NCBI GenBank assembly: GCA_964016885.1
Contig: OZ024764.1
Span: 26,040,001 to 26,104,000, forward strand
Length of the DNA stretch: 64,000 bases
Direction of reading: 5' to 3'
Source of the DNA: Eledone cirrhosa
Lineage: Eukaryota
Part shown: positions 14,708 through 35,078 of the stretch, one piece after another
Numbering within the stretch: the stretch's first letter is position 1
How the letters are laid out: the number at the start of each line of letters is the position of its first letter
Notes under the pieces: model-generated
What the model saw: only the letters and a program-made list of their open reading frames with translations
What the model was told of the DNA's origin: nothing
Database searches by the model: none
Translations under genes and position numbers: made by a program

Positions 14708-15316
14708 GTCAGGTCACCACTTCGTGCTACTGGTAACATGTATCCCAGTACAACCTGTCTCATGGTCGGGTCGTTGGCGACTAAACTGGCAACCCCACCA
14801 AGGTTTCTTGGTGAGGAGGGTGACTTTGGACATCCTGCAGGACTAAAAACAAAACCTGTAAAAGGGCAAAGGAGCTCTTAAGAGTCAATGGCCATCCAAA
14901 ATCACTGGGAGAGATGACCCCATAGCCTTTGTCAAGGCAGAATTCTAGGAGAAGGAAAACTCTGATATAACACCTGCAACCCTGATGGTATCCAATGATG
15001 TTGACTTGTTCTTCTTTTTGGTAAATATCATCTTGGTTAAGAGAGTGGGACTGGCTTTGTGCAGTGCCTTTGCTCACTATAAAAGCTTCACGGTATAGGC
15101 ATTGCTTTATATCTGGAGATCTCTCTGCACTTGTCGTCACATGGTACCAAAGGCAAAGCACTGTGTGTCGATAATTGTCACAAGTGTAGTGTTTGTACCA
15201 GAGTTTTCAAGTCGCTGGCTGGACTAAAAAGTCACACTCGTTCAGCGCATTGGTAGGGGTTCTCCTACATGGATATAAAGTAGTGGCCGTACTCGAAAAC
15301 GAGTTGGCAGCCACCA
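14708..15316 (+). mobile_element. Bipartite non-autonomous RTE-derived element, full-length copy B
   Basis: Highly similar to copy A; 15176-15256 reads [26 protein letters not shown]. Confidence 0.87.
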
Positions 15317-16312: not shown

Positions 16313-17553
16313 AACTTTGAAATGTTTTGGCCAGTATTGGCCCAGGCCATGTCTAACTTAATAGCACCACCTGGCGAAGTCTTTCAATTCAGGATTTGGG
16401 CACCATGGCCCATTCGAGAAGAGAATTACTGTTTGCGGAGACATATCCGGGTGTGGGTGGTTTGTCCGGGATTACTTGGAGGAATTTGTCCAAAGACTTC
16501 TTGAATTTTGTGTGGTCAGTTTCTGTTTTGACGTGTCCTGGTGTGATGTTGAAGAGAGCAGGGCCGATTGAGGTGAAATAATTGTGCCGTATTGTTGTTA
16601 TGAGTTGCGATTTAGATTTTTGAATGGGACGGATAGCACGGGGCCCAAGCCTTGGGTGTATCTTGAAGGCGATGCCAACATCATTTGGGCAGTGATGATG
16701 GAACATTTTCCACATCATGCAGATAATATAACGCTCACGGCGACGTTGGAGTGAGTAAAGTTTCAGGTTTTCCAATCGACCCCAGTAGTCAAGGTCTGAC
16801 ATGCCATCTATCTTTTTCGTGATTGCCCTTTGAGGAGCTTCAAGTTTCATGATACTTTGTTTCGTGTGGGGAGACCACAGTGGACAACAGTATTGAAGGT
16901 GTGGTCGGGCGAAAGTAGAGAAGAGAAGGATAATGGTGCGGGAATCTCTCGACTGGAAGGTTCTGAGGATCCAGGAACACATTCTGCGGGCCATGTCAAC
17001 TTTGCTGCTTATATGCGTGGTCCAGCTTATGTTGCTGTCCACGGTTACTCCCAAGTCTCTGATGTTGTTAGATGCCACGAGAGTTTCCCCGGAGGGAAGG
17101 GAGTACGGGAGTTTCAGAGCATCCTCTTTTCCAAAGTGGATCAGTTCGAATTTGTCTTCGTTCAGTAACATGTTGTTCTTTTCTGCCCATTGGGTAACAG
17201 CCAGTAGGTCTGACTGAAGGCTTATCCGGTCATCCACGCCATTGATGACCTTTTGGAGCTTGGAATCATCAGCGAAAATTTTAATGTTGCTGTGTTTGAT
17301 GATGTCAGTGATGTCATTAATATAGATGATGAAGAGAAGTGGGCCCAACACAGTGCCTTGTGGGACTCCACTACTGACTTTGGCTGGGCTTGATTTGACT
17401 CCCTCAACTACAACATGTTGGGTTCTGTTTGACAGGAAGCTCTTGATCCACTGCAGCAGCTTTCCAGTGACACCAATATTGGACAGCTTTCTCAGTAGAA
17501 TGTTATGATCAACCCTGTCAAAGGCCTTGCTGAAATCAAGGTAGATAACATCA
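16313..17553 (-). mobile_element. Shorter 5'-truncated copy of the same CR1-group LINE, inverted
   Basis: Reverse complement of 19337-20578 with only a handful of substitutions; protein nearly identical. Confidence 0.93.
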
Positions 17554-17659
17554 TGTATGTATGTATATATATATGTATGTATGTATGTATATATATGTAT
17601 GTATGTATATATATATATGTATGTATGTATATATATATGTATGTATATATATATGTATG

Positions 17660-17690
<31 letters not shown>

Positions 17691-17695
17691 GTATG

Positions 17696-17784
<89 letters not shown>

Positions 17785-17789
17785 GTATG

Positions 17790-17825
<36 letters not shown>

Positions 17826-17831
17826 TGTATG

Positions 17832-17880
<49 letters not shown>

Positions 17881-18532
17881 GTATGTATATATATATGTAT
17901 ATATATATGTATATATATATGTATGTATATATATATGTATATATATATGTATGTATATATATATGTATATATATATGTATATATATATGTATGTGTATAT
18001 ATATATATGTATGTATATATATATGTATATATATATGTATGTGTATATATATATGTATATATATATGTATGTGTATATATATGTATGTATGTATATATAT
18101 ATATGTATATATATGTATGTATGTATATGTATGTGTATATATATGTATGTATGTATATATATATGTATATATATGTATGTATGTATATATATATGTATAT
18201 ATATGTATGTATGTATATATATATGTATATATATGTATGTATGTATATATATATGTATATATGTATGTATGTATGTATATATATATATGTATGTATATAT
18301 ATATATGTATATATGTATGTATGTATATGTATGTATGTATGTATGTATATGTATGTATGTATGTATATATATATATATGTATGTATATGTATGTATGTAT
18401 ATGTATGTATGTATGTATATATATATGTATGTATGTATATATATATATATATGTATGTATATATATATATATGTATGTATGTATGTATGTATATATATAT
18501 ATCAAAAAAATATATAAATGTATATATATATA
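17554..18532. repeat. (TA)n/(TATG)n microsatellite separating the inverted CR1 copies
   Basis: Direct inspection. Confidence 0.97.
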
Positions 18533-20585
18533 TCAAAAAAATCAACAAGCTGAAATACTGTCAGCAGCAACACATCAACTTGACTGCCATTTCATCACTA
18601 GAGATTAAAAAACATAACCTCCAAAACAACATAATGTCCCTCATCAACAATCAGAGAAGAGCTGAAGAGGCCTGGGCCATTGAGAAGATCAAACTCAATC
18701 CCAAAGTGTTCTTTTCATTTGCAAAAAAACACAAAATCACTGGCTCTACTGTTGGCCCTCTAATTGATGAAAATGGCACTCTTCAAGACAATGCTAAAAC
18801 CATGGGTGAGATACTGCAGAAACAATACTGCTCCGTTTTCAGCAATCCTGATATGGCCGATCTGGGCTGTATCGGCGATGTTACTCCCCATTACACCTTA
18901 TCGGACATAACGTTTGGCGCCCCTGATGTCTTGGCGGCAATAAAGGAAATCAAGCATAATTCAGCAGTAGGTCCCGATAGGTTCCCTGCTTGTGTCTTGA
19001 AGGCGTGTCAACACCAACTTGCATCTCCTCTAGCCAATCTGTGGCGGAACTCACTGGATGCTGGATATGTGCCAGAAAACCTTCTATCCCAGTCTGTTGT
19101 CCCAGTTTTCAAAAAGGGAAACAAATCCCTTGCCGTGAATTACCGTCCAATCTCACTCACCTCTCATATAATTAAGGTATTTGAGCGAGTGGTAGATCGC
19201 GAATGACCCACTTCCTTGAGAGTAACAATATGCTGAACTCCAACCAGCATGGATTCCGTAATGGAAGGGATTGCCTGACGCAGCTACTGCATCACTTTGA
19301 TGACATTTTGAGAGCCTTGGGAGAGGGTTCCAACACTGATGTTATCTACCTTGATTTCAGCAAGGCCTTTGACAGGGTTGATCATAACATTCTACTGAGA
19401 AAGCTGTCCAATATTGGTGTCACTGGAAAGCTGCTGCAGTGGATCAAGTGCTTCCTGTCAAACAGAACCCAACATGTTGTAGTTGAGGGAGTCAAATCAA
19501 GCCCAGCCAAAGTCAGTAGTGGGGTCCCACAAGGCACTGTGTTGGGCCCACTTCTCTTCATCATCTATATTAATGACATCACTGACATCATCAAACACAG
19601 CAACATTAAAATTTTCGCTGATGATTCCAAGCTCCAAAAGGTCATCAATGGCGTGGATGACCGGATAAGCCTTCAGTCAGACCTACTGGCTGTTACCCAA
19701 TGGGCAGAAAAGAACAACATGTTACTGAACGAAGACAAATTCGAACTGATCCACTTTGGAAAAGAGGATGCTCTGAAACTCCCGTACTCCCTTCCCTCCG
19801 GGGAAACTCTCGTGGCATCTAACAACATCAGAGACTTGGGAGTAACCGTGGACAGCAACATAAGCTGGACCACGCATATAAGCAGCAAAGTTGACATGGC
19901 CCGCAGAATGTGTTCCTGGATCCTCAGAACCTTCCAGTCGAGAGATTCCCGCACCATTATCCTTCTCTTCTCTACTTTCGCCCGACCACACCTTCAATAC
20001 TGTTGTCCACTGTGGTCTCCCCACACGAAACAAAGTATCATGAAACTTGAAGCTCCTCAAAGGGCAATCACGAAAAAGATAGATGGCATGTCAGACCTTG
20101 ACTACTGGGGTCGATTAGAAAACCTGAAACTTTACTCACTCCAACGTCGCCGTGAGCGTTATATTATCTGCATGATGTGGAAAATGTTCCATCATCACTG
20201 CCCAAATGATGTTGGCATCGCCTTCAAGATACATCCAAGGCTTGGGCCCCGTGCTATCCGTCCCATTCAAAAATCTAAATCGCAACTCATAACAACAATA
20301 CGGCACAATTATTTCACCTCAATCGGCCCTGCTCTCTTCAACATCACACCAGGACACGTCAAAACAGAAACTGACCACACAAAATTCAAGAAGTCTTTGG
20401 ACAAATTCCTCCAAGTAATCCCGGACAAACCACCCACACCCGGATATGTCTCCGCAAACAGTAATTCTCTTCTCGAATGGGCCATGGTGCCCAAATCCTG
20501 AATTGAAAGACTTCGCCAGGTGGTGCTATTAAGTTAGACATGGCCTGGGCCAATACTGGCCAAAACATTTCAAAGTTATTCAAAG

Positions 20586-23004: not shown

Positions 23005-23382
23005 AGGCAGAATTCTAGAAGGAAAACTCTGATATAACATCTGCAACCCTGATGGTATCCAATGATGTTGACTTGTTCTTCTTTTTGGTAAATATCATCT
23101 TGGTTAAGAGAGTGGGACTGGCTTTGTGCAGTGCCTTTGCTCACTATAAAAGCTTCACGGCACAGGCATTGCTTTATATCTGGAGATCTCTCTGCACTTG
23201 TCGTCACATGGTACCATGGGCCCTGCACTATGTGTCAATAATGGTCACAAGTGTAGTGTTTGTACCAGAGTTTTCAAGTCGCTGGCTGGACTAAAAAGTC
23301 ACATCGTTCAGCGCATCGGTAGGGGTTCTCCTACATGGATATAAAGTAGTGGCCGTACTCGAAAACGAGTTGGCAGCCACCA
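23005..23382 (+). mobile_element. Same element, 5'-truncated copy C
   Basis: Same 3' end, 5' truncation, in TATG repeat. Confidence 0.87.
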
Positions 23383-26191: not shown

Positions 26192-26492
26192 GCGCGGGGA
26201 CATAGAAATAATCGGGCTGGATGCCCGATCGCGTAGTTAAACCACTGGGAGTGAAGAACCCCTAGCCCATGTCAGGGTATTCTTCTAGGAGAAGGCATCT
26301 CAGGAAACTGGGTTAACTCCGATATAAAACCTGCGGCTCAGTAGTTACCGATGATGTTGATCTTTTCTTCTTTTCGGGTTATAGCTACTGTCGCTCAGAG
26401 AGTGGGATTGGTTCAGTGCACAGTCTTTCCTCACTTTAAAAATATTCGTCACGCACAGGCATTGCACGAGTGCATTAATAATCATTAATAGT

Positions 26493-26529
<37 letters not shown>

Positions 26530-29500
26530 TATTATTACTTTTTTTTTTTTTTTTTTTTTTTTTCCCCAATTCAATGATGTTCCAGAACAATGTAAACGAG
26601 ATAATTGCCAATTTGGGTTCTGGAACAAAAAGGATCATTGGCAATAAGGGCAGGGGCCCCAAGTTATCACAACCTGGGCCCGCCCGTCATCGTGCCATTG
26701 TAATAGAGCCAAACAGGGCATTTAGTCTTGGCTGCTGGAACGTACGGACGCTGCTTGACAGGGATTCTTTGGAGCGTCCTGAACGAAGGACCGCTCTTGT
26801 TGCGAAGGAGCTTCGACGTTACGATCTTGACATCGTGGCTTTGTCTGAGACGAGGTTAGCTGGAGATGGTCATCTTACGGAATTTTGTGGAGAATATACA
26901 TTCTTCTGGAAAGGAAGAGATGAAGGAACCAGAAGAGAGGCTGGGGTAGGATTTGCTGTTAAGACTGTACTGGTGAATAAATTAGAAGAATTCCCAGTGG
27001 GGATTAGTGAGCGTCTTATGTCCATGAGAGTTCCGCTGGACAAGGGAAGATATGCTACCCTGGTGAGTGTGTATGCTCCAACTATGAATTCTGTCGATGA
27101 AGAAAAACTGTCCTTTTACCATGCCTTGAAAGGTGTTTTAAGAAATATCCCTCAGGCAGACAAAGTCATCGTGCTTGGTGACTTTAATGCTAGAGTGGGT
27201 AGGGATTTTAACACATGGAATGTAATCGGAAGGCATGGGGTGGGAAAGTGTAACAGCAATGGTATGCTCTTGCTGCAGATGTGTGAGGAGCTGGATCTGT
27301 GTGTTACCAACACCATGTTCCAACAAAAGAACAAATTCAAGACCACATGGATGCATCCTGCATCTAAGGAATGGCATCTTTTGGACTACGTCCTAGTCAG
27401 GATGCGTGACAGACAGGATGTGCGGTGTGTTCGTGTTCTTCGTGGAGCTGAGTGCTGGACGGACCACCGCCTGGTACGCGCAAAAGTGAATCTAATCACC
27501 AAACGTAAAATCCGGGCTCCTGGTGTTACCCTGCCCAAAAGATTGAATGCTGCTCGTCTTAAGGATAAAAATGTGAAGAGGACATTGGAAGAAGAGATGC
27601 AGGCTGCAGATCTTGGTGAGGATTGGCCGACCCTTAAAAAGTCGGTTTATGATGTAGGCAGACGTGTTCTGGGATTGGTGCAGAGAAAACATCAGGACTG
27701 GTTTAATGAGAAAGATGTGCATATAGATGACTTGTTGGCTGATAAGAGGCGCGCTCTGTCACGCTACTTGACGGCAAGACCACAGGAGAGGAATACGTTG
27801 CATGAGGAGCTCAGGGATGTGAAATCACGTGTTAGGCGGAGTCTTTCTCAGATGAAGGATCAGTGGTGGAGTGAGAAGGCTGGTGAGATACAAACTGCGT
27901 CTGATTGCAATAACACAAAGCTGTTGTACAGTCTCTTGCGTGAGGTTTATGGACCGTCTTCTTCTCTGGTGACACCGATTCGCAGCAGGGATGGCAAAGA
28001 ACTTCTTCGTGACTCACAGGGAATTCTACGAAGGTGGCGAGAGCACTTTGATGATCTTTTGAATCAGCCGTCTGTCGTCAGTGAAGATTTCCTCAATCTC
28101 ATTCCGGAAAGTCCTGTGAAAGTAGCTCTCGCAGAGCCTCCGACACTTGTGGAGGTTGCAGTGGCTATTTCGAAGCTGAACAGTGGAAGATCTCCAGGTA
28201 TGGATGGCATACATGCTGAGCTCCTACAATATGGTGGTGAGAGACTCCTGCAACATCTTCACTCTCTGTTTGGAGGGATATGGGCTAATGAATCCGTGCC
28301 TGAGGACTGGAGAGATGCAGTAATGGTGGTCTTGTACAAGGGAAAGGGTAACAGGAATGATTGTGGGAACTACAGAGGTATATCATTGCTTTCTGTCGTG
28401 GGGAAAGTTTTATGTAGGGTGCTTCTGGACCGTCTGCTGACACACATTGCAGATTGTGTCCTTCCTGAAAGTCAATCTGGTTTTCGTGTTGGACGCGGCA
28501 CTACTGATATGATCTTCTCAGCTAGACAGCTCCAGGAGAAGTGCATTGAACAGGGCTTGGATCTGTATCAGGTTTTTGTCGATCTGACAAAGGCTTTCGA
28601 TACTGTCAACAGAGATGCATTATGGAAGGTTCTCCAGAAACTTGGTTGCCCTGATAAGTTCCTTGCTTTAGTTAGGTCTTTCCATGACGACATGAAGGCT
28701 TGGGTTAATGTCGGAGGTAACATGTCGGAGCCTATCTCAGTAAAAAATGGAGTGAAACAGGGGGATATTCCAGCACCGACCCTGTTTGCCATATACTTTG
28801 CAATGGTTTTCTGTGTTGCATTCAGGAATTGCGAGCATGGTGTTTACATCCGATATCGAACCTCAGGCAGCATATTTAACATCAGGCGCTTTGCTGCGAA
28901 GACAAAAGTATTTACATCAGTCATAAGAGACCTCTTGTATGCAGATGATTGCGATCTTGTAGCGCACACAGAGAGTGATATGCAGCACATTTTGAATGTA
29001 TTTTCTGACGCTTGCACTGCCCTGGGTTTGACTGTCAGTCTCAAGAAAACCGTCGTCATGTACCAACCTGCACCTGGTAGGCAGTACACTGAACCAAACA
29101 TCTATGTGTATGGCAAACGACTTGGAGTGGTTGATCAGTTTGTCTACCTGGGAAGCACTGTCAATCGATACGGCAACCTTGACAGTGAAATCTCACTTAG
29201 GATTAGGAAAGCAAGTGATGCTTTCGGAAAGCTAGAAAGGCGACTCTGGGGTCGGCGAGACATATGCAGGAGGACAAAGGTAAAGGTGTACAGGGCATGT
29301 GTACTCTCTTGTCTTCTTTATGCCTGCGAGACCTGGGTCACATATCGACGCCACCTTAAGCAATTGGAGCGTTTCCATCAGATGTGTCTCAGACGGATAC
29401 ATGGCGTTCGCTGGAGGGACCACATCAGTGATGTCGAGATTTTGGAAAGCTCTATGTGTGACAGTATAGAAGCTCTTGTGCTTAAGCAGCGACTCCGTTG

Positions 29501-30224
29501 GAGTGGTCACCTTGCCAGGATGAAGGATTCTAGAATACCAAAACAACTCTTCTATGGAGAGTTGGTTAAAGGAAAACGACCGCCACATAAACCAAAAAAG
29601 AGGTATAAGGATTCCTTGAAGGCCTCTCTGAAAGACGCTAACATCTCTGCTGATACATGGGAAAATATTGCTGCTGATCGTAATAAATGGAGAAAGACTG
29701 TATATGAGGGAAAAGTTGCCTTTGAGGCATCTCGAATCGCACACGAGAAAGTAAAGCGGGACGTGAGGAAGGGTATTGCTGTTGCACTTCCAGACGGCGA
29801 GGGTCCTCCTATGTTTCTGACATGCAGCGTCTGTGCGAGACTCTGCCTAAGCAAAGCTGGACTCGAAAGTCATCTTCGCAGTCATAAAGTAAGACCAGTG
29901 GTTTACTACCAGGCTGCTGTTGGAGATGCTACTCATCATGCTTGCCAAACATGTGGTAGAGAATGTAAATCAGCAGGAGGACTCAAGCGACATGCAAAAG
30001 TACACGAACTCCAACCACAGCCGACTATTCCCAGTAAATGTTTTGGTTGCCGACTCTGTGCAAGACATTTTGGATCATTGGCTGGGCTAAAAAGCCACAT
30101 TCGATCGCAGCACTGTTAGTTGCTATCGTGTGTGTGTGTAGATATGCTTATGTGCGTGCGTGTGTGTGTATATATATATGAATATGTATATTATTATTGT
30201 TGTTGTCGTTATTATTATTATTGC

Positions 30225-30270
<46 letters not shown>

Positions 30271-30341
30271 TTTTTTATTTTTATTTATTTTTTTTTTTTT
30301 ATTGTGCAATGGCCATACTCGATAACGAGGGGGCAGCCATC

Positions 30342-30343
<2 letters not shown>
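26192..30343 (+). mobile_element. Near full-length RTE retrotransposon with conserved 5' UTR blocks and 3' terminal stem-loop
   Basis: 5' UTR motif TCTAGGAGAAGG...GATATAAAACCTGC; 3' end TGGCCATACTCGATAACGAGGGGGCAGCCATCAT then TA repeat; 5' boundary approximate. Confidence 0.88.
26574..30119 (+). CDS. Intact RTE-clade LINE ORF: APE endonuclease + reverse transcriptase + three C-terminal C2H2 zinc fingers
   Basis: WNVRTL, LSETRL, LGDFNARVG, TDHRLV (APE); FVDLTKAFDTV, GVKQGD, LYADD, YLGS (RT); CSVC..HLRSH, CQTC..HAKVH, CRLC..HIRSQH; 1181 aa uninterrupted. Confidence 0.96.
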   Translation: MMFQNNVNEIIANLGSGTKRIIGNKGRGPKLSQPGPARHRAIVIEPNRAFSLGCWNVRTLLDRDSLERPERRTALVAKELRRYDLDIVALSETRLAGDGHLTEFCGEYTFFWKGRDEGTRREAGVGFAVKTVLVNKLEEFPVGISERLMSMRVPLDKGRYATLVSVYAPTMNSVDEEKLSFYHALKGVLRNIPQADKVIVLGDFNARVGRDFNTWNVIGRHGVGKCNSNGMLLLQMCEELDLCVTNTMFQQKNKFKTTWMHPASKEWHLLDYVLVRMRDRQDVRCVRVLRGAECWTDHRLVRAKVNLITKRKIRAPGVTLPKRLNAARLKDKNVKRTLEEEMQAADLGEDWPTLKKSVYDVGRRVLGLVQRKHQDWFNEKDVHIDDLLADKRRALSRYLTARPQERNTLHEELRDVKSRVRRSLSQMKDQWWSEKAGEIQTASDCNNTKLLYSLLREVYGPSSSLVTPIRSRDGKELLRDSQGILRRWREHFDDLLNQPSVVSEDFLNLIPESPVKVALAEPPTLVEVAVAISKLNSGRSPGMDGIHAELLQYGGERLLQHLHSLFGGIWANESVPEDWRDAVMVVLYKGKGNRNDCGNYRGISLLSVVGKVLCRVLLDRLLTHIADCVLPESQSGFRVGRGTTDMIFSARQLQEKCIEQGLDLYQVFVDLTKAFDTVNRDALWKVLQKLGCPDKFLALVRSFHDDMKAWVNVGGNMSEPISVKNGVKQGDIPAPTLFAIYFAMVFCVAFRNCEHGVYIRYRTSGSIFNIRRFAAKTKVFTSVIRDLLYADDCDLVAHTESDMQHILNVFSDACTALGLTVSLKKTVVMYQPAPGRQYTEPNIYVYGKRLGVVDQFVYLGSTVNRYGNLDSEISLRIRKASDAFGKLERRLWGRRDICRRTKVKVYRACVLSCLLYACETWVTYRRHLKQLERFHQMCLRRIHGVRWRDHISDVEILESSMCDSIEALVLKQRLRWSGHLARMKDSRIPKQLFYGELVKGKRPPHKPKKRYKDSLKASLKDANISADTWENIAADRNKWRKTVYEGKVAFEASRIAHEKVKRDVRKGIAVALPDGEGPPMFLTCSVCARLCLSKAGLESHLRSHKVRPVVYYQAAVGDATHHACQTCGRECKSAGGLKRHAKVHELQPQPTIPSKCFGCRLCARHFGSLAGLKSHIRSQHC

Positions 30344-31354: not shown

Positions 31355-34327
31355 TTATCTCCAGCCTGTATAGGTTGGCCACTGGTGTAGGAGGGAGTTT
31401 GTTGCTGCTGCCCTTAGGTTTCCCTCGTGTCTTGCTGTGGGCTCATCCGGGATCCTGGATAACAAGGTGTCGAGATGTTTCTTAAAGACATCCACCTCCA
31501 CGTCATGTAAGTCTCGCAGATGCCTCGGCAGCCTGTTGAAGAGTTGAGGGCCCTTGAATCCCAGGCTATTGCAATACCTGCTCCTTATTCTAGATGTGGA
31601 AGACGGGACCTTTGGCACCACACAGTGACGTCCTGTTCGACGGTTGGTCCAGCTCCCAATGCCAAAGTTTGGTGCTAGTCCCTCCAGGATTTTCCACATG
31701 TAGATCACTGCGTATCTCTCCCGTCTTCGCTCCAAGGAGTAGAGGTTCAGTTCCTTCAGCCTCTCCCAGTAGCTTGTCTCCCTCATCTTGGCAATCGTCT
31801 TGGTGTAGCTTCGCTGGATTGCCTCAAGCTCTGTGGTTAGTTTGACACTATGGGGTGACCACAGCTGGGAGCAGTAGTCCAGGCGGCTTAGGACAAAAGT
31901 CCTCCACAGTGTCAACATGGTGTCTCGATCTCTTGTAAGGAAAGTCCTCAAGATCCAGCCAGCGAATCGTCTACATGCTGTCGCCACCTTCATGATGTGT
32001 GAAGAAAAAGATGCATCATCGCTCATGTCTATGCCCAGGTCTCGTATCGATTTTGACACGGGGATATCGGTCCCTCCTGGTCCTGTGTAGCTGTGTTCCG
32101 CTATATTTGTGTTTGTGTTTGCAGGTTTGTATTGTAGGGCTTGGAATTTGCCAGCATTAAACTGCATGTTGTTTTCTTCCGCCCATCTGTATATGGCATC
32201 CAGATCCTGCTGTAAGAGGGCAGCGTCAGCCGGGCTTTTGATTGCCTGTGCTACCTTAGTGTCATCAGCATAGCTAGTGAGGGATGTTGTTGCATGCACC
32301 ACAGAGGGCATGTCCGAGAGAGCCACCAAAAACAGTAGTGGTCCCAGGACTGTCCCCTGAGGCACCCCACTTGTTATCGGTGTTTCCATCGAGAGGGCCC
32401 CATTTGCTGCGACTGCCTGGCTTCTGTCCCTTAAGAAGCCATGCAGCCACTCACCTACTTTTCCAGTTATGCCGAGTCCGTGTAGTTTGTGACATATCAT
32501 TCCGTGGTCGACCTTGTCAAAGGCCTTCGCAAAGTCAAGATATATCACGTCTACATGTGAGCTGTCTAGTAGTTGTCTCAGTACCCAGTCGTAGTGATGT
32601 AGCAGCTGTGTAAGGCAGCTTCTTCCTGGGCGGAAGCCATGTTGCGTGCTAGTCAGGCGGTTATTTTCTTCGAGGAAAGTGATTAGTTTCTTTCTGACGA
32701 CTCGCTCCATGACCTTACTGATATGCGACGTCAGGGAGACTGGCCTATAGTTCTTGGCCTCCGCTCTAGTACCTCCTTTATGGATAGGGCATATTGTGCC
32801 TTCTTTCAGCTCCCTGGGTAGTACACCGCTAGCCAAGGAGCTTCTGAAGAGCATCTTCAGTGGAGTTGCTAAGGCCCGCTTACATATTTTTAGGAGAACT
32901 GCTGGGAATCCATCAGGTCCAGCAGCCGAGTCTGTTCTAATTTCATCAATGGCGTACACCACATCCTCCTCCGTTATGTCTATGTGGTTGATGGTTGCCA
33001 TTTCTTGATGTAGTGTTGTGGCATCAAAGAACTCCTCTGGCTTCGTTATTTGCATGTGCCTCAGTGGACATGTGAAGACACTTTTGTACTGTTCGTTCAG
33101 TATATCACATATCTCTTGGGGATTTTCGGTTAATGAACCGTCCGTGTGGAAGAGTGGTCCAATCTTGCAGTGTACTGAGGGAGTTTCTTTTGCAAATTTA
33201 AAGAAGGCCTTAGGGTTTGTTTTAATGTTTTCTATGGCCCTGTTCTCTTTCCTTGCCCTCTCATTCTCATGTGAAAGCTTGAGTGCAATCTCGGTGTCAA
33301 GTAGTGCACGTTTCAAATAGGATTCCTTCTTGTTTTGGTTTTGTTGACTATTCAACTGGTTTGAGAGTTTAGTTCTACGTCTCATAAGGATTTTCCTATC
33401 TCTGGGAATAAGATTTTTGTGTCTGTTTGCCTCTTTCTCCGGGACACACTTTTTGCATATGGTGTGTATCGTTGTCATGAAGTGTTGAAATTGTGTGTTA
33501 GTGTCTTGTGTGGCGATGTTTGCACTCCATGTTTGCTTCCGGATTTCACTCTTAATCTTCTTCCAGTCAGCCCCGTAGAAGTTAAGGCTGGATAGCGTCC
33601 CGGAGCTTCTTGGTGGTTTTGTCTCTGTTGGTTCTCTTGGACCACATATCATTAGCTCTACCAAGTTATGATCCGAGAGAATTGTTGGTGTCACCTTTAC
33701 ATTGTGGATGAGCACTTCGTTGTTTGTAAAACAGAGGTCCAGGACATTTTCGCCTCTTGTTGGGAGGAGTATTGCTTGCTCCATGAACAGCCTGTGTGTG
33801 AGGGCCAGCAGGGATTCCGTCTGTCTCTGTTCTATTGACGTCATTCCAGGGAGGAGGTGGCCCTCAGGCCATTTGACCTTTGGTAGGTTGAAGTCTCCCA
33901 GCAGTAGGATGTTGAGACCCTGGTCCAGTTTGTCAAGGACCTCTTCTATCCTACTTAGGCTATCCTCAAATTTACCCTCATGACTGGGGGCATCGGGCGG
34001 CCGATATGTGACACATATTACCGTCTGTAGTTGCTTCATATGTATTATCAGTGTGTCACAGACTGAGTTTGAATGTGTCAACAGTACAATTGGTGTGACA
34101 TCTTCACGGATATACAGAGCAACCCCACCATGAGTTCTCTCCTTCCTGTCCGAACGAAATACAGTATATTTCGGTATATGTATTTCTGCATCTGCTATAC
34201 TGCTTGTCAGGTGCGTTTCGGTTAGTGCCATGCATAGTGCTTGATTGCTTATGGCTAAGTCTCCCAGGTAGGAAATTTTACTCATGTTGCTGAGTTTCAC
34301 CAGGCCCCTGACATTCAGCAGCAGCAC
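31355..34327 (-). CDS. Intact CR1-group LINE ORF2 (APE endonuclease + RT)
   Basis: LNVRGL, ALTETHL, YRPP, LGDFNLP, SDHNLV; [36 protein letters not shown]; 990 aa; true start uncertain. Confidence 0.95.
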
Positions 34328-35078
34328 TGGTGTGACTTTTGGGTGCCAGTAATGGCTGTCGGTATGACACCTGGTCTGGTGTCAGCGGCGGCCACTCTGG
34401 GTCCCTTAACTGCGGTGGTCTCGAGTGCTGGTGTGGATGACCCTGGCTCTGGAGACGATGCAGCCAGGTCAGCTGTCCCACAATCTTCTCTGCCATCACT
34501 AAAAAATTTTTCTGATCTGCTGCTGCCATCTGTATCTCGTCGGCATGTGCGTGCCTTCTCCTTGTTGGTGCAGCACGCGCGACATCAGCATACTTCTGGA
34601 GCGGCTTATTTCGGCTTTGGCTGAGGCATGTTGCGCGAGTATGATGGGCATAGTTCGTTTGAGACCTAGGGTGGGCGAATCTGCATCCCATCCCTGTCTC
34701 TCCATGCCAGCATGTCCCGTTCTTGAAAAACTTGCACATTACTTGGGGTTTTTTGCTCCCAGTGTCTCGGTGCTTTCTGTTCTTTCTTTGAACAGTTGTC
34801 CACTGGTCCCTCTGCGCTTGGTTCTCCTTCGGAAGGTGATTTCGCTTTTCACCTTTGCCCTTAGCTTGTTGGTTGCCCGGCCTGCCCTCCCTGCCTGTAG
34901 CGGAGGGTATATCATTTTCTTTCAGGTCCGTGCTTGTGCTCTCCTCCTTTTCTTTTTCCCCTTCCTTTTCCTCCTCCTTCTCCCTCTCCTTCTCCTCATC
35001 CCTCCCTTCGGTTTTCTCCTCCCTGAGGACACGGCTTAGCATCGCCATATGAGGCGCTATGAGGACATACGCCTTCTC
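34278..35078 (-). CDS. CR1-group ORF1, 5'-truncated, with acidic/charged tract and CCCH zinc finger
   Basis: CKFFKNGTCWHGETGMGCRFAHP CCCH motif; overlaps ORF2 start in another frame; N-terminus fused to foreign RTE sequence. Confidence 0.8.
   Translation of the reverse strand, partial: EKAYVLIAPHMAMLSRVLREEKTEGRDEEKEREKEEEKEGEKEKEESTSTDLKENDIPSATGREGRPGNQQAKGKGEKRNHLPKENQAQRDQWTTVQRKNRKHRDTGSKKPQVMCKFFKNGTCWHGETGMGCRFAHPRSQTNYAHHTRATCLSQSRNKPLQKYADVARAAPTRRRHAHADEIQMAAADQKNFLVMAEKIVGQLTWLHRLQSQGHPHQHSRPPQLRDPEWPPLTPDQVSYRQPLLAPKSHTSAAAECQGPGETQQHE

Follow-up and report, generated by a model that had tools for sequence, protein, structure and literature searches.

Known xrRNA folds and 5′ modules of non-LTR elements

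The ring of a subclass-1a xrRNA comprises 15-16 nt and is closed by a pair between L3 and the base after P1. In flaviviruses, the subclass-1a xrRNAs combine a three-way junction (P1 of 5 bp, a variable P2, P3 of 4-8 bp), a pseudoknot PK1 of 1-2 bp, a U.A-U base triple, a C between P2 and P3, a second pseudoknot PK2 of 2-7 bp, and P4 (PMC8374639, PMC7527734, PMC8571300). They resist Xrn1 without the help of proteins and stop it at a defined site. Mosquito-borne xrRNAs are described as having C-G junction pairs and an invariant P1 composition, and as being anisotropic; the knot yields when approached from its 3′ side (PMC13161572). Xrn1 halts 5-6 nt before P1 of these RNAs (PMC5760640); a second halt position is given as 5 nt upstream of PK1 (PMC7749634), and Xrn2 is likewise stalled by a Zika xrRNA (PMC9512700). 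Engineered uses of xrRNAs have been published (PMC12397905, bioRxiv 10.1101/2025.03.11.642701). A 2021 review presents xrRNAs as characterised only in viruses and asks if cells possess any (PMC8374639). No report of a natural xrRNA in a retrotransposon was found in the literature searched, subscription papers and bioRxiv supplements lying outside its reach.

Non-LTR retrotransposons carry 5′ modules of another kind. For the HDV-like ribozymes of R2, R1, R4, RTE, Ingi, and LOA, the proposed tasks are release of the element from its co-transcript and protection of the uncapped end (PMC5786205, PMC11331408). For R2, 5′ folds are suggested to limit exonucleolytic loss (PMC11331408, PMC12222951), and the stability of the template 5′ end is thought to be limiting in retrotransposon-based gene insertion (PMC11331408). 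A bipartite non-autonomous layout is known for RTE (PMC5786205), as in Bov-A, RTESINE1/2, and WALLSI3, which join the 5′ UTR and 3′ tail of an RTE-type LINE and have a microsatellite 3′ end.

The element considered here shares this layout. It lies in the window, the whole 64-kb stretch of DNA that was analysed, and starts at position 14708. Its first ~58 nt match the flavivirus subclass-1a xrRNA in sequence and base pairing and likely fold into the ring-shaped xrRNA knot, which would mean that a fold known from viruses has taken on a new role in cells. The head is named subclass-1a-like and is not counted a subclass-1a member, because its junction pairs and ring closure depart from the viral ones. 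The descriptions available for Bov-A, RTESINE1/2, WALLSI3, and the RTE-2_OV types, unlike the present element, contain no xrRNA-like head.

The 609-bp element, its copies, and its partner LINEs

The head opens a bipartite non-autonomous RTE-type element of 609 bp (14708..15316, + strand), identified by its matches to a LINE 5′ UTR and 3′ tail. Its nt 1-400 region (nt 17-400 aligned) is 71% identical to the 5′ UTR of L094, a degenerate autonomous RTE-type LINE that begins with the same head. The endonuclease and RT of L094 are 51-59% identical to those of the intact LINE in the window, and nt 509-549 and 577-609 of the element match the ORF end and 3′ tail of that window LINE (78% and 85%). The element has no ORF and no small-RNA head.

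The intact RTE-type LINE (26192..30343, + strand) encodes an APE endonuclease, an RT, and C2H2 fingers within an open frame at 26385-30119. Its 3′ tail is similar to that of the 609-bp element and its 5′ head is different; it possibly mobilises the element. The RTE label follows from the architecture (endonuclease, RT, C2H2 fingers, one frame) together with the published account of octopus RTE-2_OV-type LINEs (PMC9115989), which the partner LINE resembles by description; the RTE-2_OV 5′ sequence was not found in eight published supplement files. The window LINE is young (L599-L623), and its structured 5′ head has no Rfam match. Most of its 25 young copies have in common a poly-T tract and sequence beyond it on the 5′ side, which suggests that a single master locus gave rise to them by 5′ transduction. 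The window also contains three other ORFs that encode an RT, one of them together with an endonuclease (1008 aa), and an 872-aa frame without a Pfam match; these four lie at 31355-34381 (-), 16389-18560 (-), 19185-20501 (+), and 41121-43739 (+).

A second full-length copy, 95.6% identical, lies at 13486..14093 (+ strand); it has a P3-breaking change, and the tattat upstream of it shows the -3 scar discussed below. The older E-subfamily copy at 52141..52502 (+) has a decayed head in which the U of the triple and the C of PK1 are lost, and a 51-bp minisatellite (52628-53245) interrupts the body downstream of it. Two copies are 5′-truncated and headless: 23005..23382 (+, nt 228-609) and 60492..60901 (-, nt 200-609). 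Genome-wide, head patterns occur at no fewer than 12,413 places in 3.0 Gb (reversed control, 0), and an exact 25-mer of the 3′ tail has 25,557 matches.

Among the listed runs, the element was found in contigs only and in no RNA data set. Contigs under other organism labels in runs X1, X6, and X8 contain it, one X6 contig spanning all of it with a TATG flank. L095-L119, L091, and L092 are chimeras that fuse a head of the 609-bp family with the 5′ portion of a different RTE-like element, and family 2 has a second, internal head with a long P2.

Predicted fold of the head

On inspection of the sequence, GTCAGGT opens the copies at 13486, 14708, and 52141, with TA/TG repeats directly 5′ of it, as an earlier sequence-only reading of this DNA had stated. 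The 16-mer CTAAACTGGCAACCCC occurs three times against 0.22 expected, and within the 64-kb window model R1 matches these three heads only. The pairings proposed in that reading (CAGGT/ACCTG, a variable hairpin, loop CATG with a 3′ CATG, GTCG/CGAC, and CACYAAG/CTTGGTG) were all recovered; the stem it gave as CTGG/CCAG is present but longer, being 6 bp of TACTGG/CCAGTA. The sequence TAAACTGGCAACCCC, called invariant there, is not so: many E-type copies have TAAACCGG, and several related families lack it.

The predicted subclass-1a-like knot spans 14707..14764 (+ strand) and is drawn from the pairing scheme, a structure descriptor, and covariation. Five subclass-1a features (junction, PK1, triple, junction C, and PK2) map onto this interval. 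P1 pairs 14710-14714 with 14753-14757. P2 occupies 14715-14726, with 3 bp in the 14708 copy and 4-5 bp in the main subfamily. It is separated by C14727 from P3, whose 6 bp join 14728-14733 to 14745-14750. PK1 consists of U14707-A14752 and G14708-C14751, and the triple, read at the level of sequence, of U14709.A14729-U14749. PK2 pairs the loop CATG at 14737-14740 with the CATG 3′ of the outer stem at 14761-14764. Of these tertiary features the sequence-only reading had seen PK2; it overlooked the 5′ pseudoknot (14708-14751, 14707-14752), the base triple, and the junction C.

Directly 3′ of PK2 lies a P4-like domain, GTCG...CGAC TAAA CTGGC (14765..14796, +). Its register is ambiguous; it has hairpin potential and can also be drawn as a second H-type pseudoknot. 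The domain, as GTCG...CGAC TAAA CYGRC, is present in the element's own families and in L429 and L472, and some families are without it. A CACCAAG/CTTGGTG hairpin follows at 14796..14813 (+).

Only the 14708 copy among the three window heads passes the strict descriptor; those at 13486 and 52141 have stem- or triple-breaking changes. The three-way junction is not the minimum-energy fold, lying 1.8-12 kcal/mol above it, much as in the viral set (0.9-12). Single-sequence folds did not recover the junction, with z values of -1.7 for three B/E copies, -3.4 for L094, and +0.5 for L112. The 5′ strand can also pair with the GGGTGAC region, but this competing helix was set aside, its variation being, by eye, one-sided only.

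Comparison with flavivirus xrRNAs

Scanned permissively against Rfam, the element gave five weak matches (E<=10), the top-scoring being RF01415 (Flavivirus_SLIV) at 14703-14774, with 20.3 bits and E 0.55, below the cut-off of 54.5 bits. When RF01415 was run against the whole genome (64 candidates scored), all three reported matches were copies of the 609-bp element, at 29.0-29.6 bits. The sequence-only reading had held that a match to an Rfam family would speak against its proposal; RF01415 is such a match, but only below the cut-off (20-30 versus 54.5 bits). RF03547 (Flavi_xrRNA, gathering score 37 bits) gave no match on the element, and a scan of the whole window yielded only microsatellite-driven miRNA noise among the matches listed (150 of 362).

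The viral comparison used 80 of 84 loci matching the core pattern, 17 of which, near the 3′ end of contigs of 10.4-11.1 kb, were classed as flavivirus-like. Flavivirus Rfam families match 13 of these 17; the other four have no Rfam match at E<=0.01. The structure descriptor parses 27/30 of the element's own pattern matches and 14/17 flavivirus-like loci. It parses none of the chance matches to the sequence pattern, whether from other viral loci (0/45) or from prokaryotes (0/80), the prokaryotic scan serving as a negative control only (80 of at least 122 loci used). With PK2 included, its background in simulated sequence was no site in 8 Mb and one site in another 3 Mb. At 27 core positions, the 14708 copy is identical to each viral xrRNA at 18-21, and the differences are mostly compensatory. 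Of the 17 flavivirus-like loci, a model built from 46 retrotransposon heads alone picks out the xrRNA position in 15 at E<=1 and in eight at E<0.01; these loci were preselected by pattern, and the E-values of the model are rough.

The likeness to the flavivirus xrRNAs (RF01415, RF03547) thus extends over the junction with its 5-bp P1, the variable P2, the G-C and covarying outer pair of PK1, the U.A-U triple, the C between P2 and P3, a PK2 within 2-7 bp, and hairpin potential after PK2. The difference in position is plain: the retrotransposon head stands at the first base of a cellular element, whereas the flavivirus one is in the viral 3′ UTR. In composition, all 11 retroelement heads examined have U-A at P1 pair 5 and at P3 pair 1, while the same junction pairs in viral examples are C-G in 14/14 (P1) and 13/14 (P3), the one remaining viral P3 pair being U-A. 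The ring-closing complement is at position 15 in 14/14 viral examples and in 4/11 retroelement heads; it falls within 15-17 in 8/11 heads (four at 16-17) and is absent in three, so that it is shifted or missing in 7/11. Scores stay below the Rfam cut-offs, and on the retrotransposon side the fold is a predicted one. The outer PK1 pair also fails in 5/19 heads, and the A-U variant of the PK1 pattern has no exact match genome-wide, though decayed copies exist.

Covariation and conservation across families

Whether the structure covaries, as the sequence-only reading had claimed, depends on the scale: the claim is borne out within the genome for P2, and the other helices change on both sides only across families. 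Among own copies (45 distinct sequences), P2 is the only helix with double-sided changes (24 cells versus 11.6), and the pair count alone is not above shuffles (112/500). Across 19 heads, there are 21 double-sided cells against 6.1 in shuffled alignments (0/500), distributed over six pairs, of which PK2 and P3 hold two each and P2 and PK1 one each; the count of covarying pairs alone is again not above shuffles (73/500).

In these 19 heads, 97.9% of P1 cells and 98.2% of P3 cells are paired, and P2 ranges over 8-31 nt with compensatory pairs. The G-C pair of PK1 is present in 19/19 and the outer pair in 14/19 (U-A in 12, A-U in one, G-U in one). The U, A, and U of the triple, as bases in the sequence, and the junction C are invariant in 19/19. 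This core conservation is partly imposed by the search pattern in the metagenome rows, and not so for own copies found by BLAST. PK2, which no pattern demanded, has 4-7 bp in 11/11 representatives, and its strands fit the partner from their own family better than permuted partners (46/5040).

The metagenome scan used 80 of at least 121 loci, and two further own families were added. L472 and L429 have the head upstream of RTE-type ORFs, L430/L457/L461 form another head-bearing family, and an ORF-less element of ~225 bp is common to 28 metagenome loci (family 5), its aligned copies all beginning at the G. L432 is a lone insertion in this set. Related heads are also found on retroelements in the DNA of other organisms, and compensatory changes fall in P2, P3, and both pseudoknots. 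The sequence-only view is upheld in so far as the RNA is conserved and pseudoknotted, probably has a function, and lies exactly at the 5′ end of a family related to RTE.

Position of the 5′ end and the junction scar

When copies were chosen by their 3′ tail (n=30), 13 began exactly at the G and 17 were scattered from 10 to 528. The base before the G is T in 82/89 copies, as PK1 needs. The purine-pyrimidine phase of the flank is broken most often between -4 and -3 (23/89 versus a background of 6.6, p 1e-7). Among copies with microsatellite flanks, a TT scar marks 22 of the 93 full-length ones and none of the 29 truncated ones (p 0.002); this set overlaps the phase-break set (n=89). The scar points to an RNA whose 5′ end would lie ~3 nt upstream of the G, with TAT at 14705..14707 (+) as the candidate leader; this leader is deduced from the population-level scar and matches the flank in the 14708 copy. 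The Xrn1 halt 5-6 nt before P1 corresponds to 3-4 nt before the G of the element, and the halt described in PMC7749634 is 1-3 nt longer than the scar distance.

Readable target duplications show junctions that are flush, often with GT microhomology, or that carry 1-5 extra bases. The main family has 13 informative duplications among 127 copies: three carry 3-4 extra bases, five none, two one base (a filter artefact), and three are artefacts of tandem or duplicated heads. In family 3, target duplications were found in 2/28, both with extras of 3-4 nt; in family 5, extras range from none to five, with no fixed leader. Untemplated additions could account for some of these extras. The position before the G, that of the outer PK1 pair, is itself a G in 15/23 copies of own family 3 and in 8/28 of family 5, where flank composition is 18.5%. 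Head duplications (31 cases) have a spacer of <=4 nt in 16, with a mode of 3, and the old head continues 3′ in 0/24; they are a weak hint at the same leader, many being explicable by DNA-level tandem duplication.

Proposed mechanism and alternative explanations

We consider it probable that Xrn1/Xrn2, when degrading co-transcripts, stall at the xrRNA-like knot, which thereby sets the 5′ end of the uncapped RNA and protects it. Copies of the element would be transcribed within longer host or read-through transcripts; co-transcription from upstream is suggested because most of the 25 copies of the window LINE share sequence beyond the head. Decapping or upstream cleavage would come first, after which Xrn2/Xrn1 would trim the flank and halt 3-5 nt before the G, leaving a defined, stable, uncapped template. 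An RTE protein would then prime at the 3′ tail, and reverse transcription would cross the knot from its 3′ side, the side from which viral xrRNAs yield. The cDNA end might anneal to T|GT in the TA/TATG target or be end-joined with a short leader. In this way, the knot would take over the task of the HDV-like ribozymes in other non-LTR elements. That several families without an ORF have retained the head speaks for a function in making or stabilising the RNA.

A xrRNA-like fold that is real but reused, as a handle for the RTE protein at the 5′ junction or as a translation element, with the 5′ end made otherwise, would sit well with the departures of the junction and ring-closing pairs from the viral ones, the extra conserved downstream domain of several families, and the variable junction extras. 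It is nonetheless unlikely: all 19 heads retain the triple, the G-C pair of PK1, and the junction C, features known to serve the ring; the scar at -3 is consistent with the footprint of a nuclease; and translation cannot be the reason for a head kept by ORF-less derivatives. The sequence-only reading had favoured an unclassified ribozyme or promoter, and both give way to a fold already known from subclass-1a xrRNA, to the lack of any ribozyme match at E<=10, and to a scar that lies ~3 nt before the G.

An internal RNA polymerase II promoter starting 1-4 nt upstream of the G, with structure secondary, is quite unlikely. LINE 5′ ends frequently drive transcription (PMC5786205), the 5′ boundary here is sharp, and the G at -1 in families 3 and 5 could be a copied cap. 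Yet the G frequency of family 5 is close to flank composition, both family-3 copies with a target duplication have 3-4 nt extras and not a single G, DNA promoters do not need compensatory pairs or pseudoknots, and the leader of the main family begins with U. U is a poor transcription initiator. Release from host transcripts by a new self-cleaving ribozyme is very unlikely, since a known non-catalytic fold explains the invariant bases of the first 58 nt and the extras vary over 1-5 nt, not one fixed site. No ribozyme family is among the five Rfam matches (E<=10) on the element or the 11 on eight related loci, and an HDV-like parse at the 5′ end was obtained in 0/8 representatives with a home-made descriptor run without a positive control. 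Like the 5′ HDV-like ribozymes, the head is a structured RNA that occupies the very 5′ terminus and persists in bipartite non-autonomous derivatives. The topology differs, however, no catalytic core was found in the retrotransposon head, and its end would come from an exonuclease halt, with a 5′-phosphate and a short variable leader, rather than from self-cleavage.

Beyond the halt of Xrn1/Xrn2 itself, a wider reading would have an RTE lineage of several eukaryotic hosts use a bona fide xrRNA, homologous to subclass 1a and exchanged between RNA viruses and retroelements, so that host Xrn1/Xrn2 carves the transposition template out of host transcripts; we lean slightly towards it. The near-identity to subclass 1a suggests homology, because subclass 1b attains the same ring with other bases. 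The xrRNA module may move among RNA replicons, because 1a-like motifs also occur in a noda-like virus contig.

Significance and related occurrences

The heads provide a concrete candidate for a cellular xrRNA: a single animal genome has over 12,000 of them, and others occur in the DNA of further organisms. If the proposal is true, it would add a third means by which non-LTR elements acquire a defined, stable 5′ end, the other two being internal promoters and ribozymes, and would raise the matter of module exchange between RNA viruses and retroelements. It would also mean many nuclease roadblocks within host transcripts, and could offer natural 5′ modules for retrotransposon-based gene insertion.

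Similar motifs were observed in several other settings. L540, which encodes a nodavirus-type methyltransferase/RdRP and an S-domain coat, has a subclass-1a-like motif (4076-) near its 3′ end; among other RNA-virus-like contigs outside flaviviruses, L541 has two such motifs and L552 a pattern match at its end. At L432:2567-2720, a xrRNA-like head and a partial tandem duplicate stand just 3′ of genes in an AT-rich contig encoding a protein kinase, and no retroelement body was seen in that contig. L493 and L488 contain tandem arrays of 3-4 xrRNA-like motifs, most with a P1 of CGGGC/GCCCG, a compensatory variant. Tandem satellites made of the xrRNA-like head (a 59-bp unit and others) occur at G000:C2:221059405-221061226, C2:220134719-, C8:18059898-, and C15:169588-.
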